From NCBI RefSeq assembly GCF_003334355.1, contig NZ_QOWP01000008.1: DNA of 64,000 nt; one strand, 5' to 3'. The notes beneath the pieces are model-generated. The model was not told the origin of the DNA. It was given only the letters and a program-made list of their open reading frames with translations, and made no database searches. The DNA comes from Escherichia coli. GTDB lineage: Bacteria; Pseudomonadota; Gammaproteobacteria; Enterobacterales; Enterobacteriaceae. Of the stretch, positions 1 through 6,451 are shown in pieces (position 1 is the stretch's first letter; each line of letters begins with the position of its first letter). A program made the translations under genes and the position numbers.

Positions 1-59
1 TTTTTCGTCTTGCGACGTTAAGAATCCGTATCTTCGAGTGCCCACACAGATTGTCTGAT

Positions 60-290
60 AAATTGTTAAAGAGCAGTGCCGCTTCGCTTTTTCTCAGCGG
101 CGCGGGGTGTGCATAATACGCTTTCCCGCTACAGAGTCAAGCATTTATTTTTGCTTTCTCTGCCGGAGTTCTCAGGAGAACCCCGCTGACCCGGCGGCGT
201 GTTTGCCGTTGTTCCGTGTCAGTGGTGGCGCATTATAGGGAGTTATTCCGGCCTGACAAGAGGAAATTTAAAATAATTTTCTGACCGCGC
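60..290 (-). promoter_or_regulatory. rRNA operon tandem promoters P1 and P2 with UP element and boxA antiterminator, transcribing leftward out of the window (rrnC-type given the yieP neighbour)
   Basis: Reverse complement of ~221-290 reads gcgcggtcagaaaattattttaaatttcctcTTGTCAggccggaataactcccTATAATgcgccaccact, which is the classical rrn P1 with its UP element. Reverse complement of ~103-140 gives TTGACT-17-TATTAT (P2). Reverse complement of ~63-75 is tgctctttaacaa (boxA). The 16S gene body is not in the window. Confidence 0.85.
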
Positions 291-411
291 ATTTTTTCAG
301 CAAAAGCCCCGTTAATGTGCCATAAAACAAGCAATTTGCCGTTTTTGCAACCGTAATCACACTTCCTGGTGGCATACTAAGGAGGAATAAAAAGAAAAAG
401 GAAGATTAGTA

Positions 412-1104
412 ATGCCTTTAAGCGCACAACAGTTAGCTGCACAGAAAAACCTTTCGTATGTTCTGGCTGAGAAGCTGGCGCAACGCATCTTAAAAGGTGA
501 ATATGAACCCGGCACCATTTTGCCTGGTGAGATTGAGCTGGGCGAGCAATTTGGAGTGAGTCGTACAGCGGTACGCGAAGCGGTCAAAACGTTAACGGCA
601 AAAGGGATGGTTTTACCGCGACCGCGAATTGGTACCCGGGTCATGCCACAATCAAACTGGAATTTTCTTGATCAGGAATTGCTTACCTGGTGGATGACAG
701 AAGAGAACTTTCATCAGGTCATCGATCACTTTCTGGTTATGCGTATCTGTCTGGAGCCGCAAGCTTGCCTACTGGCTGCAACGGTTGGCACCGCGGAACA
801 GAAGGCGCATCTCAATACGTTAATGGCCGAAATGGCGGCATTAAAAGAGAACTTTCGCCGTGAACGCTGGATCGAAGTAGATATGGCCTGGCATGAGCAT
901 ATCTATGAAATGAGCGCCAATCCGTTTTTGACCTCATTCGCCTCGCTATTCCATTCGGTTTATCACACTTACTTCACGTCAATTACCAGCGACACAGTGA
1001 TAAAGCTGGATCTGCACCAGGCGATTGTCGATGCGATTGTCCAAAGCGATGGCGACGCGGCATTTAAAGCTTGTCAGGCGCTGCTACGCTCACCTGATAC
1101 GTGA
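412..1104 (+). CDS. yieP: GntR-family transcriptional regulator YieP
   Basis: ORF-track 230 aa, ATG start with AGGAGG upstream; N-terminal wHTH GntR-type motif (GVSRTAVREAV); sequence recognised as E. coli YieP. Confidence 0.9.
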   Translation: MPLSAQQLAAQKNLSYVLAEKLAQRILKGEYEPGTILPGEIELGEQFGVSRTAVREAVKTLTAKGMVLPRPRIGTRVMPQSNWNFLDQELLTWWMTEENFHQVIDHFLVMRICLEPQACLLAATVGTAEQKAHLNTLMAEMAALKENFRRERWIEVDMAWHEHIYEMSANPFLTSFASLFHSVYHTYFTSITSDTVIKLDLHQAIVDAIVQSDGDAAFKACQALLRSPDT

Positions 1105-1126
1105 CAACCCGATAACAGGACATTGA

Positions 1127-2554
1127 ATGAGCGATAAAAAGAAGCGCAGTATGGCGGGTTTGCCGTGGATCGCGGCGATGGCCTTCTTCATGCAGGCACT
1201 TGATGCCACTATTCTGAATACCGCCTTACCCGCAATCGCTCATAGCCTTAATCGTTCTCCTCTCGCGATGCAATCAGCCATCATCAGTTATACGCTGACG
1301 GTGGCGATGCTTATTCCGGTAAGCGGATGGCTAGCCGATCGCTTCGGTACGCGTCGCATTTTTACCCTTGCCGTGAGTCTGTTCACATTGGGTTCTCTGG
1401 CCTGCGCACTTTCTAATTCGCTACCACAGCTGGTTGTCTTCCGGGTTATTCAGGGGATAGGCGGCGCAATGATGATGCCTGTTGCTCGGCTGGCCTTACT
1501 GCGCGCTTATCCTCGTAATGAACTTCTTCCAGTATTGAATTTTGTCGCCATGCCGGGTCTGGTGGGGCCAATTTTAGGCCCCGTTCTTGGCGGCGTGCTG
1601 GTCACCTGGGCAACCTGGCACTGGATATTTTTAATCAATATCCCCATAGGTATTGCAGGCCTTCTTTACGCGCGCAAACATATGCCCAATTTCACCACCG
1701 CACGACGCAGATTCGATATCACTGGCTTTTTGTTGTTTGGCCTCAGCCTTGTTCTCTTCTCAAGCGGAATAGAGCTATTCGGGGAAAAGATTGTCGCCAG
1801 CTGGATTGCCTTGACGGTAATTGTCACCAGCATCGGGTTACTGCTTCTCTATATTCTCCATGCACGACGCACGCCAAACCCATTAATTTCATTAGATTTA
1901 TTTAAAACCCGCACTTTCTCGATCGGTATCGTAGGCAATATTGCAACCCGTCTGGGGACCGGCTGTGTACCGTTCCTTATGCCATTGATGTTACAGGTAG
2001 GATTTGGTTATCAGGCGTTTATTGCCGGCTGTATGATGGCGCCGACAGCGTTAGGTTCCATTATTGCAAAATCGATGGTTACCCAAGTCTTACGTCGTCT
2101 GGGCTATCGCCATACATTAGTGGGGATCACGGTGATTATTGGGCTAATGATCGCTCAGTTCTCTTTGCAATCACCGGCAATGGCGATATGGATGCTGATC
2201 TTGCCGTTGTTTATATTAGGGATGGCTATGTCGACGCAGTTTACCGCGATGAATACCATCACACTTGCCGATCTGACCGATGACAACGCCAGCAGCGGTA
2301 ACAGTGTTCTGGCGGTCACGCAGCAACTGTCTATCAGTTTAGGCGTTGCTGTAAGTGCGGCCGTCCTTCGCGTTTATGAAGGAATGGAAGGCACAACGAC
2401 TGTCGAACAATTCCACTATACGTTTATCACAATGGGCATTATTACTGTTGCTTCAGCAGCAATGTTCATGCTTCTGAAAACAACCGATGGTAATAATTTG
2501 ATCAAAAGACAGCGTAAATCTAAGCCGAACCGCGTTCCATCAGAATCGGAGTAA
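1127..2554 (+). CDS. hsrA: MFS transporter HsrA (YieO)
   Basis: 475 aa, multiple hydrophobic TM segments, MFS signature region; recognised as HsrA; position between yieP and rbsR. Confidence 0.9.
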
Positions 2555-3512
2555 GTTGTAATCGTTGTTGCTGAAGAGTTGGCTGGGTTATCCGATGGAT
2601 GAGTACATCAATCGCCAGCTCCCCCAGTTCATCTTTCGGTTGGTGGATAGTGGTTAATGGTGGCGTCATAAAGCTTGCCAGTTCGATATCGTCATAGCCA
2701 ATCACCGCGATATCCTGCGGAACCTGTAACTCTGCCTGATATAACGCCTGGTAAACGCCAACAGCCATAGCGTCATTTCCGGTAAAGACGGCCTGAGGAC
2801 GCAGCGGATGTGATAGCAGTTGGCGCATAGCGTCAAACCCGCCGTTAAATTCAAAATCACCAGTGACTTCATAGCCATCAGGAATGTTGAGACCCGCACG
2901 TTTCATCGCCGCCCGATAACCTTCCAACCGCAGGCGCGCCGGAGTTTTATCCAGCGGGCCGGTAATACAGGCGATACGGGTATGACCTTTATCGATCAGA
3001 TATTGCGTTGCTAAGTCTCCGCCCAGCAACGAGTTATCCTGAATAAGATCGCTGTCGCCATCGAACGGAGCCCAGTCCATCATCACGGTAGGCACTGTCG
3101 GATAACGTTGCATGATTTCACGCGAAGGCTGATGCGTTTCGGTGCACAGTAACAGCAAGCCATCAACGCGTTTTTGCATCAGCGTTTCCAGATTGCGATT
3201 CATCCGCTGTTCATCGCCTTCGGTATTGCAAAGGACAAGACTATAACCGCGTTCGAAGCAGCTGCGTTCAACGCCACGCACCAGTTCTGAATAGAAAGGA
3301 TTGGTACTGGCAGTGATCAACATGCCAATGGTATGTGTTTGATTGAGTTTGAGGCTACGCGCCAGAGCTGATGGCGCGTAATTGAGTTCTTTAATCGCCG
3401 CTTCAACTTTGGCGGTAATCGCTTCACTGACGAAGCGATCTTTATTGATAACGTGAGAAACTGTTGAGGTAGAAACGCCCGCCAGGCGGGCAACATCTTT
3501 CATTGTAGCCAA
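2520..3512 (-). CDS. rbsR: Ribose operon repressor RbsR (LacI family)
   Basis: 330 aa; N-terminal LacI-type HTH ([20 protein letters not shown]); ORF-track start is a TTG 3 nt after the rbsK stop, with an in-frame ATG 3 codons in as alternative. Confidence 0.9.
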
Positions 3513-3515
3513 GCG

Positions 3516-4445
3516 TCACCTCTGCCTGTCTAAAAATGCGTCGATCTCTTCACGCCACGGTACGGAAGGTTGTGCGCCTTTACGTGTTACGGCAATCGCA
3601 GCGGCAGCATGGGCAAAACGAATCGCCTCTGGCAATGGTTTTTCTTCCAGCAATGCCGTGATTAACGCACCGTTAAAGGTATCTCCGGCAGCAATGGTAT
3701 CGACAGCCTGCACCCGGAATCCAGGAACGCGCTGACCTTCACCATTCACGCTAGCCCATACACCACGACTTCCTAAAGTAATCAGTACAGTACGGATACC
3801 TTTTTCATGCAGTACCTGCGCCGCCTTCGCTGCATCTTCATCATTTTCAACACGAATACCGGTGAGCTTTTCTGCTTCCGTTTCGTTTGGCGTAATAATG
3901 TCCACCAGCGCCAGCAGTTCGTCAGGAAGTTCGCGAGCCGGAGCCGGGTTAAGCGCAACGATAGTCTTATTTTGATGGGCGATTTTCGCCGCTGCCATCA
4001 CACTTTCGAGTGGTGATTCCAGCTGCATTAATAATGCTGATGCGTTGGCAATACGCTCACGTTGCGCTTCCACCAGCGCCGGGGAAAGGGCAGCATTAGC
4101 GCCGGCATGAATACCAATGACATTCTCACCTTCGCCATTAACAAAAATCAGCGCCACACCTGTTGATTCGCCTTTGATCACGCTGACGGGAGAAATATCG
4201 ATGTTATCAGTGGCGAGCTGCTGGCGAACGCTCTCGCCAATGCTGTCATCGCCAGTGCAGGCAATAAACGCGATATTCGCACCGCTACGCCCAGCAGCCA
4301 CCGCCTGATTCGCGCCTTTGCCGCCAAATGCAACCTGATAGTGGTTACCGGTTACGGTTTCGCCTGGGGAAGGAAAAGATTGAAGATTAAGAATGTGGTC
4401 AGCATTAATGCTGCCAAGAACAACGAGGCTGCCTGCGTTTTGCAT
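3516..4445 (-). CDS. rbsK: Ribokinase RbsK
   Basis: ORF-track 318 aa trimmed to start MQNAGSLVVLGSINAD (309 aa); PfkB-family motifs (GGKGANQA, DTIAAGD). Confidence 0.9.
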   Translation of the reverse strand: MQNAGSLVVLGSINADHILNLQSFPSPGETVTGNHYQVAFGGKGANQAVAAGRSGANIAFIACTGDDSIGESVRQQLATDNIDISPVSVIKGESTGVALIFVNGEGENVIGIHAGANAALSPALVEAQRERIANASALLMQLESPLESVMAAAKIAHQNKTIVALNPAPARELPDELLALVDIITPNETEAEKLTGIRVENDEDAAKAAQVLHEKGIRTVLITLGSRGVWASVNGEGQRVPGFRVQAVDTIAAGDTFNGALITALLEEKPLPEAIRFAHAAAAIAVTRKGAQPSVPWREEIDAFLDRQR

Positions 4446-4570
4446 ATTCGGGATGTCCATAAAATGCGCCACCGTGTTAGGGTGGCGCGTGCCCTGCTTT
4501 TCTTTATATTACACGTTCATCTGTCGATGACGTATTTATGTCACCATCAGGTCATACAACCTGATTAAAA

Positions 4571-5461
4571 CTACTGCTTAACAACCAGTTTCAGATCAAC
4601 CGGATACTTAGCCTGAACTTTCTCGCCTTTCAGCACTTTATCTGCGGTTTCGACGCCTTTCGCGCCAATCTGATCGGGTAGCTGAGCGATAGTCGCTGCT
4701 AGTTTGCCATCATTCACCGCTTTTTCGCCATCCGGTGTACCGTCAAATCCGACGACCATCACATCCGATTTACCGGCAGTTTGCAGTGCGCGCAGCGCGC
4801 CCAGCGCCATTTCATCATTCTGCGCAAATACAGCCTGAACATCCGGATGAGCGGTCAACAGGTTCTGCATTACGTTCAAACCTTTGGTGCGATCAAAATC
4901 TGCTGGCTGGCTGGCAAGAACATTAAACTTGTGAGCAGCTACGGCCTGCTGGAAGCCTTCGCCACGTTCACGGGCTGCGGATGTACCAGCAATGCCTTGC
5001 AGCTCGATAACTTTGGCACCTTCGCCAGCTTTCTTCGCGATGTAATCACCGGCGATTTTGCCGCCCAGTACGTTATCAGATGCAATGTGGCTCACCACTT
5101 CACCTTTCGTTGCCTGGCGGTCAAGAGTGATAACCGGAATGTTCGCCTGGTTAGCCATCTTCACAGCATTACCCACTGCGTCGGAGTCGGTCGGGTTAAT
5201 CAGCAGAATTTTGGTGCCGCGAACGGTTAAGTCCTGCACGTTCGCCAGCTCTTTCGCCGGGTTGTTCTGGGAGTCCAGCACCACCAGGTTATAGCCAAGT
5301 TTATCCGCCTCTTTCTGCGCGCCATCTTTCAGCGATACAAAGAACGGGTTGTTAAGCGTGGAGACCACCAGCGCGATGGTGTCTTTTGCCATCGCATTCG
5401 CACTGACGGTGGCGCTTAGCGCAACAGCGGAAACCAGGGTAGCCAGTTTTTTCATGTTCAT
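4571..5461 (-). CDS. rbsB: Periplasmic ribose-binding protein RbsB
   Basis: Signal peptide [23 protein letters not shown] followed by mature periplasmic binding protein; start taken at the second Met pair (296 aa). Confidence 0.9.
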
Positions 5462-5485
5462 ATTCAAGATGTCCTGTAGTCGTTA

Positions 5486-6451
5486 TTACTGCTTTTTGTT
5501 GTCTACCAGCACCGCCAGCAAAATCACCACCGCTTTGACGATCATCTGGTAATAGGAGGAAACACCTAACAAATTCAATCCATTATTAAGGAAGCCAAGA
5601 ATTAATGCGCCGATCAACGTCCCAACAATGCGACCTTTTCCGCCCGCCAGACTCGTACCGCCCAGAACCACCGCAGCAATAGCATCCAGCTCATAGCCAG
5701 TCCCCGCCGTGGGTTGTGCAGAGGAGAGACGCGCCACTTCAATGATCCCGGCCAGCGATGCCAGCAGACCACAAAGAGAATAGACGATGATTTTGATTTT
5801 ATTGACGTTGATACCAGAAAGACGCGTTGCCGCTTCGTTGCCGCCCAGCGCGTAGATGTAACGCCCCAGACGCGTGTGATGCAGCATGTACCAGGCCGCG
5901 AGGAAGACAATCCCCATGATCCAGACTGGCGTCGGTACGCCCAGCGGACGACCAATACCAAACCAGCCAAACAGATCGGCGTTCTCAGTAAAGCCGGTAT
6001 TCACTGGGCTACCGTTGGTATAAACCATGGTCACGCCGCGCAGTAAAAGCATCATAACCAGCGTAGCGATAAAGGCCTGGACGCGACCTTTCGCTACAAT
6101 CACCCCGGTTACCGCACCAATTGCGGCACCTAACGCGAGAGCGGCAGCGACAGCCACCAGCGCATTGACTTCAATGCCGACGATAGATGCAGCAACTGCG
6201 CCGGTCAGCGCCAACAGAGAACCTACCGATAAGTCGATGCCCGACGTCAGGATCACCAGCGTCATCCCGACCGCCATAATGGCGTTCACTGAGGTTTGCT
6301 GGAGAATATTGAATAAGTTATTGATGGTGAAAAAGTTCGGACTTAACGTCGAGACAATCGCGATCAGCACCAGCAGAGCGATAAGCGATTTCTGCTCCAT
6401 CAGCCACGCTTTCGTGAAATAACGGCGACCAGAGACAGTCTGGGTTGTCAT
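5486..6451 (-). CDS. rbsC: Ribose ABC transporter permease RbsC
   Basis: 321 aa polytopic membrane protein, ABC permease; operon context. Confidence 0.9.
   Translation of the reverse strand: MTTQTVSGRRYFTKAWLMEQKSLIALLVLIAIVSTLSPNFFTINNLFNILQQTSVNAIMAVGMTLVILTSGIDLSVGSLLALTGAVAASIVGIEVNALVAVAAALALGAAIGAVTGVIVAKGRVQAFIATLVMMLLLRGVTMVYTNGSPVNTGFTENADLFGWFGIGRPLGVPTPVWIMGIVFLAAWYMLHHTRLGRYIYALGGNEAATRLSGINVNKIKIIVYSLCGLLASLAGIIEVARLSSAQPTAGTGYELDAIAAVVLGGTSLAGGKGRIVGTLIGALILGFLNNGLNLLGVSSYYQMIVKAVVILLAVLVDNKKQ

Follow-up and report, generated by a model that had tools for sequence, protein, structure and literature searches.

The 35-nt convergent overlap of hsrA and rbsR in Escherichia coli: both annotated gene ends hold, with a likely origin by frameshift

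Background

The junction of hsrA and rbsR in Escherichia coli raises the question of whether two convergent genes that are annotated as sharing 35 nt at their 3' ends truly do so and, if they do, how this overlap arose and where the two transcripts stop. The junction lies within a stretch of 64,000 nt (contig NZ_QOWP01000008.1, RefSeq assembly GCF_003334355.1), hereafter called the window, and positions are those of the window unless a K-12 coordinate is given. The gene hsrA is the second one of the yieP-hsrA unit, an operon that adjoins the ribose operon in most Enterobacteriaceae (PMC11340327), and rbsR is the last gene of rbsDACBKR, with TTG as its annotated start codon. About 75 convergent CDS overlaps have been counted in E. 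coli (PMC4161906), and the convergent type accounts for ~7% of the well-characterised overlaps, with 3' extension as the typical origin and with some cases being genuine and conserved in closely related species (PMC2478687).

The hsrA/rbsR overlap is ordinary and already known, as it has been part of the K-12 reference annotation for decades; the only new detail lies in its reconstructed origin (from 4 nt to 35 nt and then 53 nt) and in the dual-coding footprint on the synonymous sites of rbsR. The reading we favour, at a probability of roughly 0.8, is that of an ordinary and genuine overlap between unrelated genes, which would have originated by a single frameshift, would add a translated and weakly constrained tail to HsrA, and would be accompanied by Rho-type transcript endings inside the neighbouring gene.

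The overlap and its annotation

The coding features at the junction are the following:

1127..2554, + strand: hsrA (yieO) CDS, 475 aa, DHA2/EmrB-type MFS transporter (ORF, RefSeq annotation, matches to NCBIfam NF007799 and TIGR00711)
2520..3512, − strand: rbsR CDS, 330 aa, LacI-family repressor of the ribose operon (ORF, RefSeq annotation, NCBIfam NF007743)
2520..2554, both strands: dual-strand coding region, comprising S465 (part) to E475 plus the stop codon of hsrA and L320 (part) to A330 plus the stop codon of rbsR

As read from the sequence, the hsrA stop codon TAA occupies 2552-2554 on the + strand and the rbsR stop codon TAG occupies 2520-2522 on the − strand ('cta' on the + strand), and the 35 nt at 2520..2554 are common to the 3' ends of both genes. 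The two are opposite-strand ORFs with shared 3' nucleotides, i.e., a convergent overlapping CDS pair. In the register of this overlap the wobble position of rbsR faces codon position 2 of hsrA, and every synonymous change of rbsR within the overlap therefore alters HsrA.

E. coli strain C (NZ_CP029371.1) is 100% identical to the window and has the same two gene ends in RefSeq, and K-12 MG1655 carries the same 35-nt overlap between rbsR (3938227..3939219, +) and hsrA (3939185..3940612, −). Of 5426 complete E. coli genomes, 5415 contain the region. The 35-nt overlap, which the first-pass annotation had taken from an ORF track, is thereby borne out, with the sequence, the ORFs and the RefSeq annotation of strains C and K-12 all in agreement. 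Its length is in itself not remarkable, because a run of ~11 random codons past the rbsR stop would be free of stop codons with a probability of (61/64)^11, i.e., ~0.6.

A point of nomenclature concerns hsrA in particular. Almost every E. coli genome in RefSeq lists it, under the name given by PGAP, as 'mdtD / multidrug transporter subunit MdtD', and it is called hsrA in K-12 and Sakai. The product clears the cut-off of the NF007799 'MdtD' subfamily (458.6 bits vs. 426), its neighbour is yieP, and no mdt operon surrounds it; the automatic name is probably misleading.

Conservation of the gene ends across Enterobacteriaceae

HsrA was used to scan one genome per species, which returned 80 Enterobacteriaceae loci. 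In 80/80 of them hsrA and rbsR are convergent and without intergenic space, and the point made earlier on this DNA, that no terminator would fit between the two genes, is true of each of these loci. The species fall into the following classes:

35-nt overlap: 34 species
53-nt overlap: 5 species (Lelliottia, Huaxiibacter, an Enterobacter MAG)
24-nt overlap: 1 species
9-nt overlap: 6 species
4-nt overlap: 26 species, with both stop codons in one common tetramer (TTAA, CTAA, TTAG or CTAG)
2-3 nt gap: 8 species

RbsR is 330 aa long and ends in ...LQLTPxLxxRGS(A/V) in 75/80 loci, and in the 5 loci of the 53-nt class it has 336 aa, with six additional residues. HsrA is conserved across the 80 loci as far as ...KDGRNLIKERHK, beyond which the total length is either 461-467 aa (short) or 475-477 aa (long). 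Within this set of loci, the HsrA tail is evolutionarily labile and the RbsR end stable.

This lability could suggest that one of the ORF ends is an annotation artefact, hsrA really ending at about residue 465 or rbsR ending earlier, and that the two proteins do not truly overlap in their coding. The short-tailed HsrA (461-467 aa) of 41/80 species would fit such a reading, as would the match to the HsrA family profile NF007799, which stops at residue 465, and the numerous long convergent overlaps in databases that are 3'-extension artefacts (PMC2478687). However, E. coli hsrA contains no in-frame stop before 2552, the position of its stop is kept in 34 species, and the rbsR Leu codon that forms this stop on the opposite strand is stop-forming (CTT/CTC) in 40/40 taxa. 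In addition, the synonymous sites of rbsR within the overlap are frozen in the overlap-bearing clade alone (see below), and residues 1-330 of RbsR align to profile positions 1-330 of 330 of the equivalog NF007743, with the same final residue in 75/80 species. A conserved earlier stop in homologs, which had been named as the observation that would expose a mis-called end, is absent within the Escherichia-Citrobacter-Salmonella-Enterobacter clade, and both ends stand. Mis-called ORF ends are largely refuted by the 80-species comparison and the end-to-end NCBIfam match, and we regard an artefact as extremely improbable.

With the rbsR end fixed in 75/80 loci and the hsrA end kept in 34 species, both ends behave as genuine ones, which confirms that they are correctly annotated and should stay unchanged. 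The conservation of the same ends in 34 species of several genera does, judged from the sequences compared, go beyond chance.

One of the retrieved records is labelled 'Chryseobacterium sp. 18061' (CACSKA010000004.1), although it carries an Enterobacteriaceae yieP-hsrA-rbsR locus and has 'Citrobacter sp. 18056' as its tree neighbour; this assembly is probably mislabelled or contaminated.

Origin of the overlap

A neighbour-joining tree was built from concatenated HsrA and RbsR, i.e., from the same two genes whose overlap is studied, and in it the taxa with 35/53-nt overlaps form one clade (Escherichia, Salmonella, Citrobacter, Intestinirhabdus, Enterobacter, Leclercia, Lelliottia, and Huaxiibacter) that is nested among 4-nt taxa; the long overlap is therefore derived. 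When the junctions are aligned with the rbsR stop as an anchor, the sequence is '...cac aaa gc[tta]a' (H K A stop) in the short-tailed genera and '...cac aaa a[cta]aa ccg aac...' in the long-tailed ones, which have one base less ahead of the tetramer. A 1-nt frameshift immediately upstream of the common stop is likely the cause of the long overlap, and the alignment places it approximately as follows:

2513..2522, + strand: putative site of the 1-nt frameshift, from the alignment of the junctions with the rbsR stop as reference

In the sequence of events that we propose, the ancestral hsrA and rbsR stops would have lain in one TTAA-type tetramer with an overlap of 4 nt. A loss of frame by 1 nt before this tetramer, in the ancestor of Escherichia, Salmonella, Citrobacter, Enterobacter, Leclercia, and Lelliottia, would have moved the stop out of the hsrA frame, which would then run antisense through the last 10 codons of rbsR and yield the 35-nt overlap. 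The new hsrA stop, TAA or TGA, would be provided by the complement of the Leu-Thr codons of rbsR. In Lelliottia, a later loss of the rbsR stop may have added 18 nt, giving 53 nt. Kosakonia uses the third frame, with a 9-nt overlap that becomes 24 nt once that stop is lost. The junction may serve as a worked example of how an overlap is born, by way of a common TTAA stop, a 1-nt frameshift, an antisense extension, and further growth upon the loss of the neighbour's stop.

Constraint on the shared codons

If the extension of hsrA is translated, it should leave traces in the rbsR codons that it crosses. Two elements are of relevance here:

2522..2551, + strand: HsrA tail of 10 residues (466-475), clade-specific, absent from short-tailed genera and outside the NF007799 match
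2552..2555, both strands: hsrA stop TAA, complementary to bases of the Leu codon (CTT) of rbsR and to the first base of its Thr codon

In the long clade, the wobble positions of the last 11 rbsR codons have an entropy of 0.57 bits vs. 1.09 bits elsewhere in rbsR of the same taxa (one-sided MWU p = 0.010), and none of the 296 sliding 11-codon windows is as low. The same codons in short-overlap genera have 1.32 vs. 1.10 bits and no reduction. The common segment hence carries the fewer synonymous changes that are the signature of dual coding, in a small sample that covers only 8-10 codons and related species, with the rest of rbsR as the internal control. Codon choice differs between the clades at three positions in particular (counts are taxa):

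Leu, 11th from the rbsR end: long clade CTT 38 and CTC 2 of 40; short clade CTG 18, CTC 11, CTT 7, others 5
Thr, 10th from the rbsR end: long clade ACT 39/40; short clade ACG 34/41 and ACT 0
Ser, 2nd from the rbsR end: long clade TCG 36/40; short clade TCC 17, TCA 13, TCG 10, TCT 1

The wobble base of the Leu codon is T or C in 40/40 long-clade taxa, and either of them yields an hsrA stop (TAA or TGA). The rbsR codons CTT, ACT, GTT, and TCG are unpreferred and frozen across ~40 species, and the tail has the consensus K-P-x-x-[AV]-P-S-[EK]-x-E in the long clade.

The 10-residue tail of HsrA is probably translated and weakly constrained, because rbsR shows unusually little variation at the synonymous sites of the overlap in the long clade. 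Such a weakly constrained, cytoplasmic tail would have frozen several synonymous sites of rbsR, which illustrates that a tail acquired by one gene can freeze the synonymous sites of its neighbour. The low synonymous variation could also be caused by a nucleic-acid element instead of a coding constraint from hsrA. Going further, one could propose that the 35-nt segment is actively maintained, either since the HsrA tail has gained a function or since the zero-spacer junction couples the expression of the ribose regulon and of yieP-hsrA as an excludon; we hold this to be decidedly unlikely, and a weak constraint on a translated tail is the reading retained here.

Transcription ends

Since no terminator fits between hsrA and rbsR, each transcript would end inside the other gene. 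The alternative is that a bidirectional intrinsic terminator, or a site of programmed head-on collision of RNA polymerases, is embedded in the coding sequence and ends both transcripts; E. coli often has such elements between convergent genes, where a stem-loop positions the collisions (bioRxiv 10.1101/2022.10.23.513370). A pattern scan found no intrinsic-terminator-like site near 2520-2554 on either strand, and the bidirectional type, a G+C-rich hairpin between an A-tract and a U-tract, is absent from the junction as well. RNA folds of 200 nt per strand at the junction were no better than those of shuffled sequences (z-scores −0.5 and −0.7). In the 300 nt that follow the stops, 13/81 loci have terminator-like motifs on the hsrA strand and 23/81 on the rbsR strand, a lower share than among control chunks of coding sequence (130/243). 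Furthermore, Adams et al. (PMC7815308) list no 3' end from Term-seq at the junction. An embedded terminator is, on this evidence, very unlikely, and we return to Rho-type endings inside the neighbouring genes.

For these, published data (PMC7815308) indicate two regions:

~2700..2930, + strand: Rho-dependent termination region of the yieP-hsrA transcript, inside antisense rbsR (peak at K-12 3938923, −, equal to window 2816)
3352, − strand: Rho termination region of the rbs strand, in the 5' part of rbsR (K-12 3938387, Rho score 3.77)

The first of these regions, on the hsrA strand, is bicyclomycin-sensitive and situated 262 nt beyond the stop codon of hsrA, with a Rho score of 2.78 and p = 7.6e-6 (PMC7815308 supplementary file 2); the reads drop from 102 to 32 in untreated cells and from 164 to 143 with bicyclomycin, a call based on a single dataset, in which read counts are low and the 800-nt windows give a coarse resolution (PMC7815308). 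A weak hint of a rut site for the hsrA RNA is given by a mild excess of C over G (+ strand skew of −0.06 to −0.21 at 2650-2950). On this strand, Rho would end transcription a few hundred nt beyond the stop codon, where the RNA is untranslated.

On the rbs strand, a strong 3' end is located at the rbsB/rbsZ terminator (window 4461; PMC7815308), and for the rbsR transcript Adams et al. 2021 (PMC7815308) list neither a 3' end nor a Rho region beyond its stop codon. The rbs RNA also has more C than G (+ strand skew of +0.08 to +0.21 at 1950-2250), again a weak rut hint. This transcript would probably end by Rho-dependent termination within antisense hsrA. In the supplements of SMRT-Cappable-seq, hsrA and rbsR are unmentioned.

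The expectation that each transcript enters the neighbouring gene, as stated in the first-pass annotation, agrees with the listing of the pair as an excludon (PMC12288877) and with the Rho region of the hsrA strand in antisense rbsR (PMC7815308).

Several observations on the same segment may be added. The rbsR start codon TTG (3510..3512, −) lies 3 nt after the rbsK stop (3516..3518), with an ATG in the same frame three codons further on (MATM...); the TTG start and the Rho region ~160 nt into rbsR fit a weak translation of rbsR that would expose it to premature termination. The sRNA RbsZ (b4804) is annotated in K-12 at the 3' end of rbsB, which corresponds to 4461..4694 (−) in the window, and its terminator is the strongest Term-seq 3' end of the region (K-12 3937278, window 4461; PMC7815308). 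An Rfam scan of positions 1-6000, which did not report RbsZ, had no match at the junction and a single one at 53..304 (−), to Ysr197 (Yersinia sRNA 197), with 83 bits and E = 4.9e-19, below the gathering score of 167. This match is placed just upstream of the 16S rRNA gene and on the rRNA strand (16S at 1..732, −, in the locus extracted as L001), and it most likely represents the rrnC leader/promoter region and no separate sRNA.

Antisense transcription and possible interference

Transcripts that run into each other's genes may be more than a by-product of gene order. The junction could be a selected regulatory device, a functional convergent excludon in which rbsR, raised by ribose, and yieP-hsrA act against each other via polymerase collision or cleavage of the RNA duplex by RNase III. 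The rbsR-hsrA pair is among the 165 convergent excludons of the MG1655 'excludome', for which the criterion was RNA-seq coverage in 50% or more of 58 datasets (PMC12288877), but any pair with overlapping CDSs enters this list automatically. The end-to-end adjacency is kept in 80/80 Enterobacteriaceae species, which simple synteny would also give, while the length of the overlap ranges from −3 to 53 nt among genera, and this speaks against a tuned element. The RNA of the hsrA strand does enter antisense rbsR before Rho stops transcription (PMC7815308); however, reads are low on both strands (~100-170 per 800 nt, PMC7815308), and collisions should be rare. The rbs strand loses most of its polymerases at the rbsB/rbsZ terminator and at the Rho region early in rbsR, and therefore, in LB, few polymerases coming from the rbs side should get as far as the overlap. 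A literature search for a functional test of the rbsR-hsrA pair gave none. Taken together, we consider a selected device unlikely. Both genes look weakly expressed, and the mutual interference that had been suggested for them is only a possibility, with a strong effect being unlikely at the transcript levels seen. Rho-type endings of two weakly expressed transcripts, each inside the other gene, are the preferred account.

Comparison with known systems

As a convergent overlapping pair of prokaryotic genes, hsrA/rbsR has the usual properties: the genes lie on opposite strands, share their 3' ends, and would owe the overlap to a moved stop. The ancestral 4-nt form (TTAA, CTAA, TTAG, CTAG) fits this class as well, and nothing essential differs. 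With convergent excludons the pair has the transcript overlap in common, and it is named as such in the MG1655 excludome (PMC12288877). Classical excludons, in contrast, have long overlapping UTRs and a demonstrated reciprocal repression, whereas the rbsR-hsrA overlap begins in the CDSs and reciprocal regulation is only putative. In the published set, roughly half of the Rho regions run antisense to genes (PMC7815308). The bicyclomycin-sensitive read-through of the hsrA strand, ~260 nt past the stop in a region classed as 'antisense' to rbsR (PMC7815308), resembles this Rho-dependent termination of untranslated or antisense RNA; it differs in being documented on one strand only, with a putative rut site.

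Rearrangements at the junction

Genomes are occasionally rearranged at the junction. In E. coli JNE181771 (NZ_AP027156.1) a deletion has removed the 3' end of hsrA, the entire rbsR, and the 3' part of rbsK, and the remnant consists of two truncated pseudogenes with a 19-nt overlap at 3247..3265 of the extracted locus (window ~2446-2464 joined to rbsK). With a query of 701 nt, coverage falls below 80% in about 55 of the 5416 records that match, and rearrangements therefore recur at low frequency at this site. In a compendium of mutations, the rbs genes and hsrA are among the frequently mutated loci (PMC6120903).
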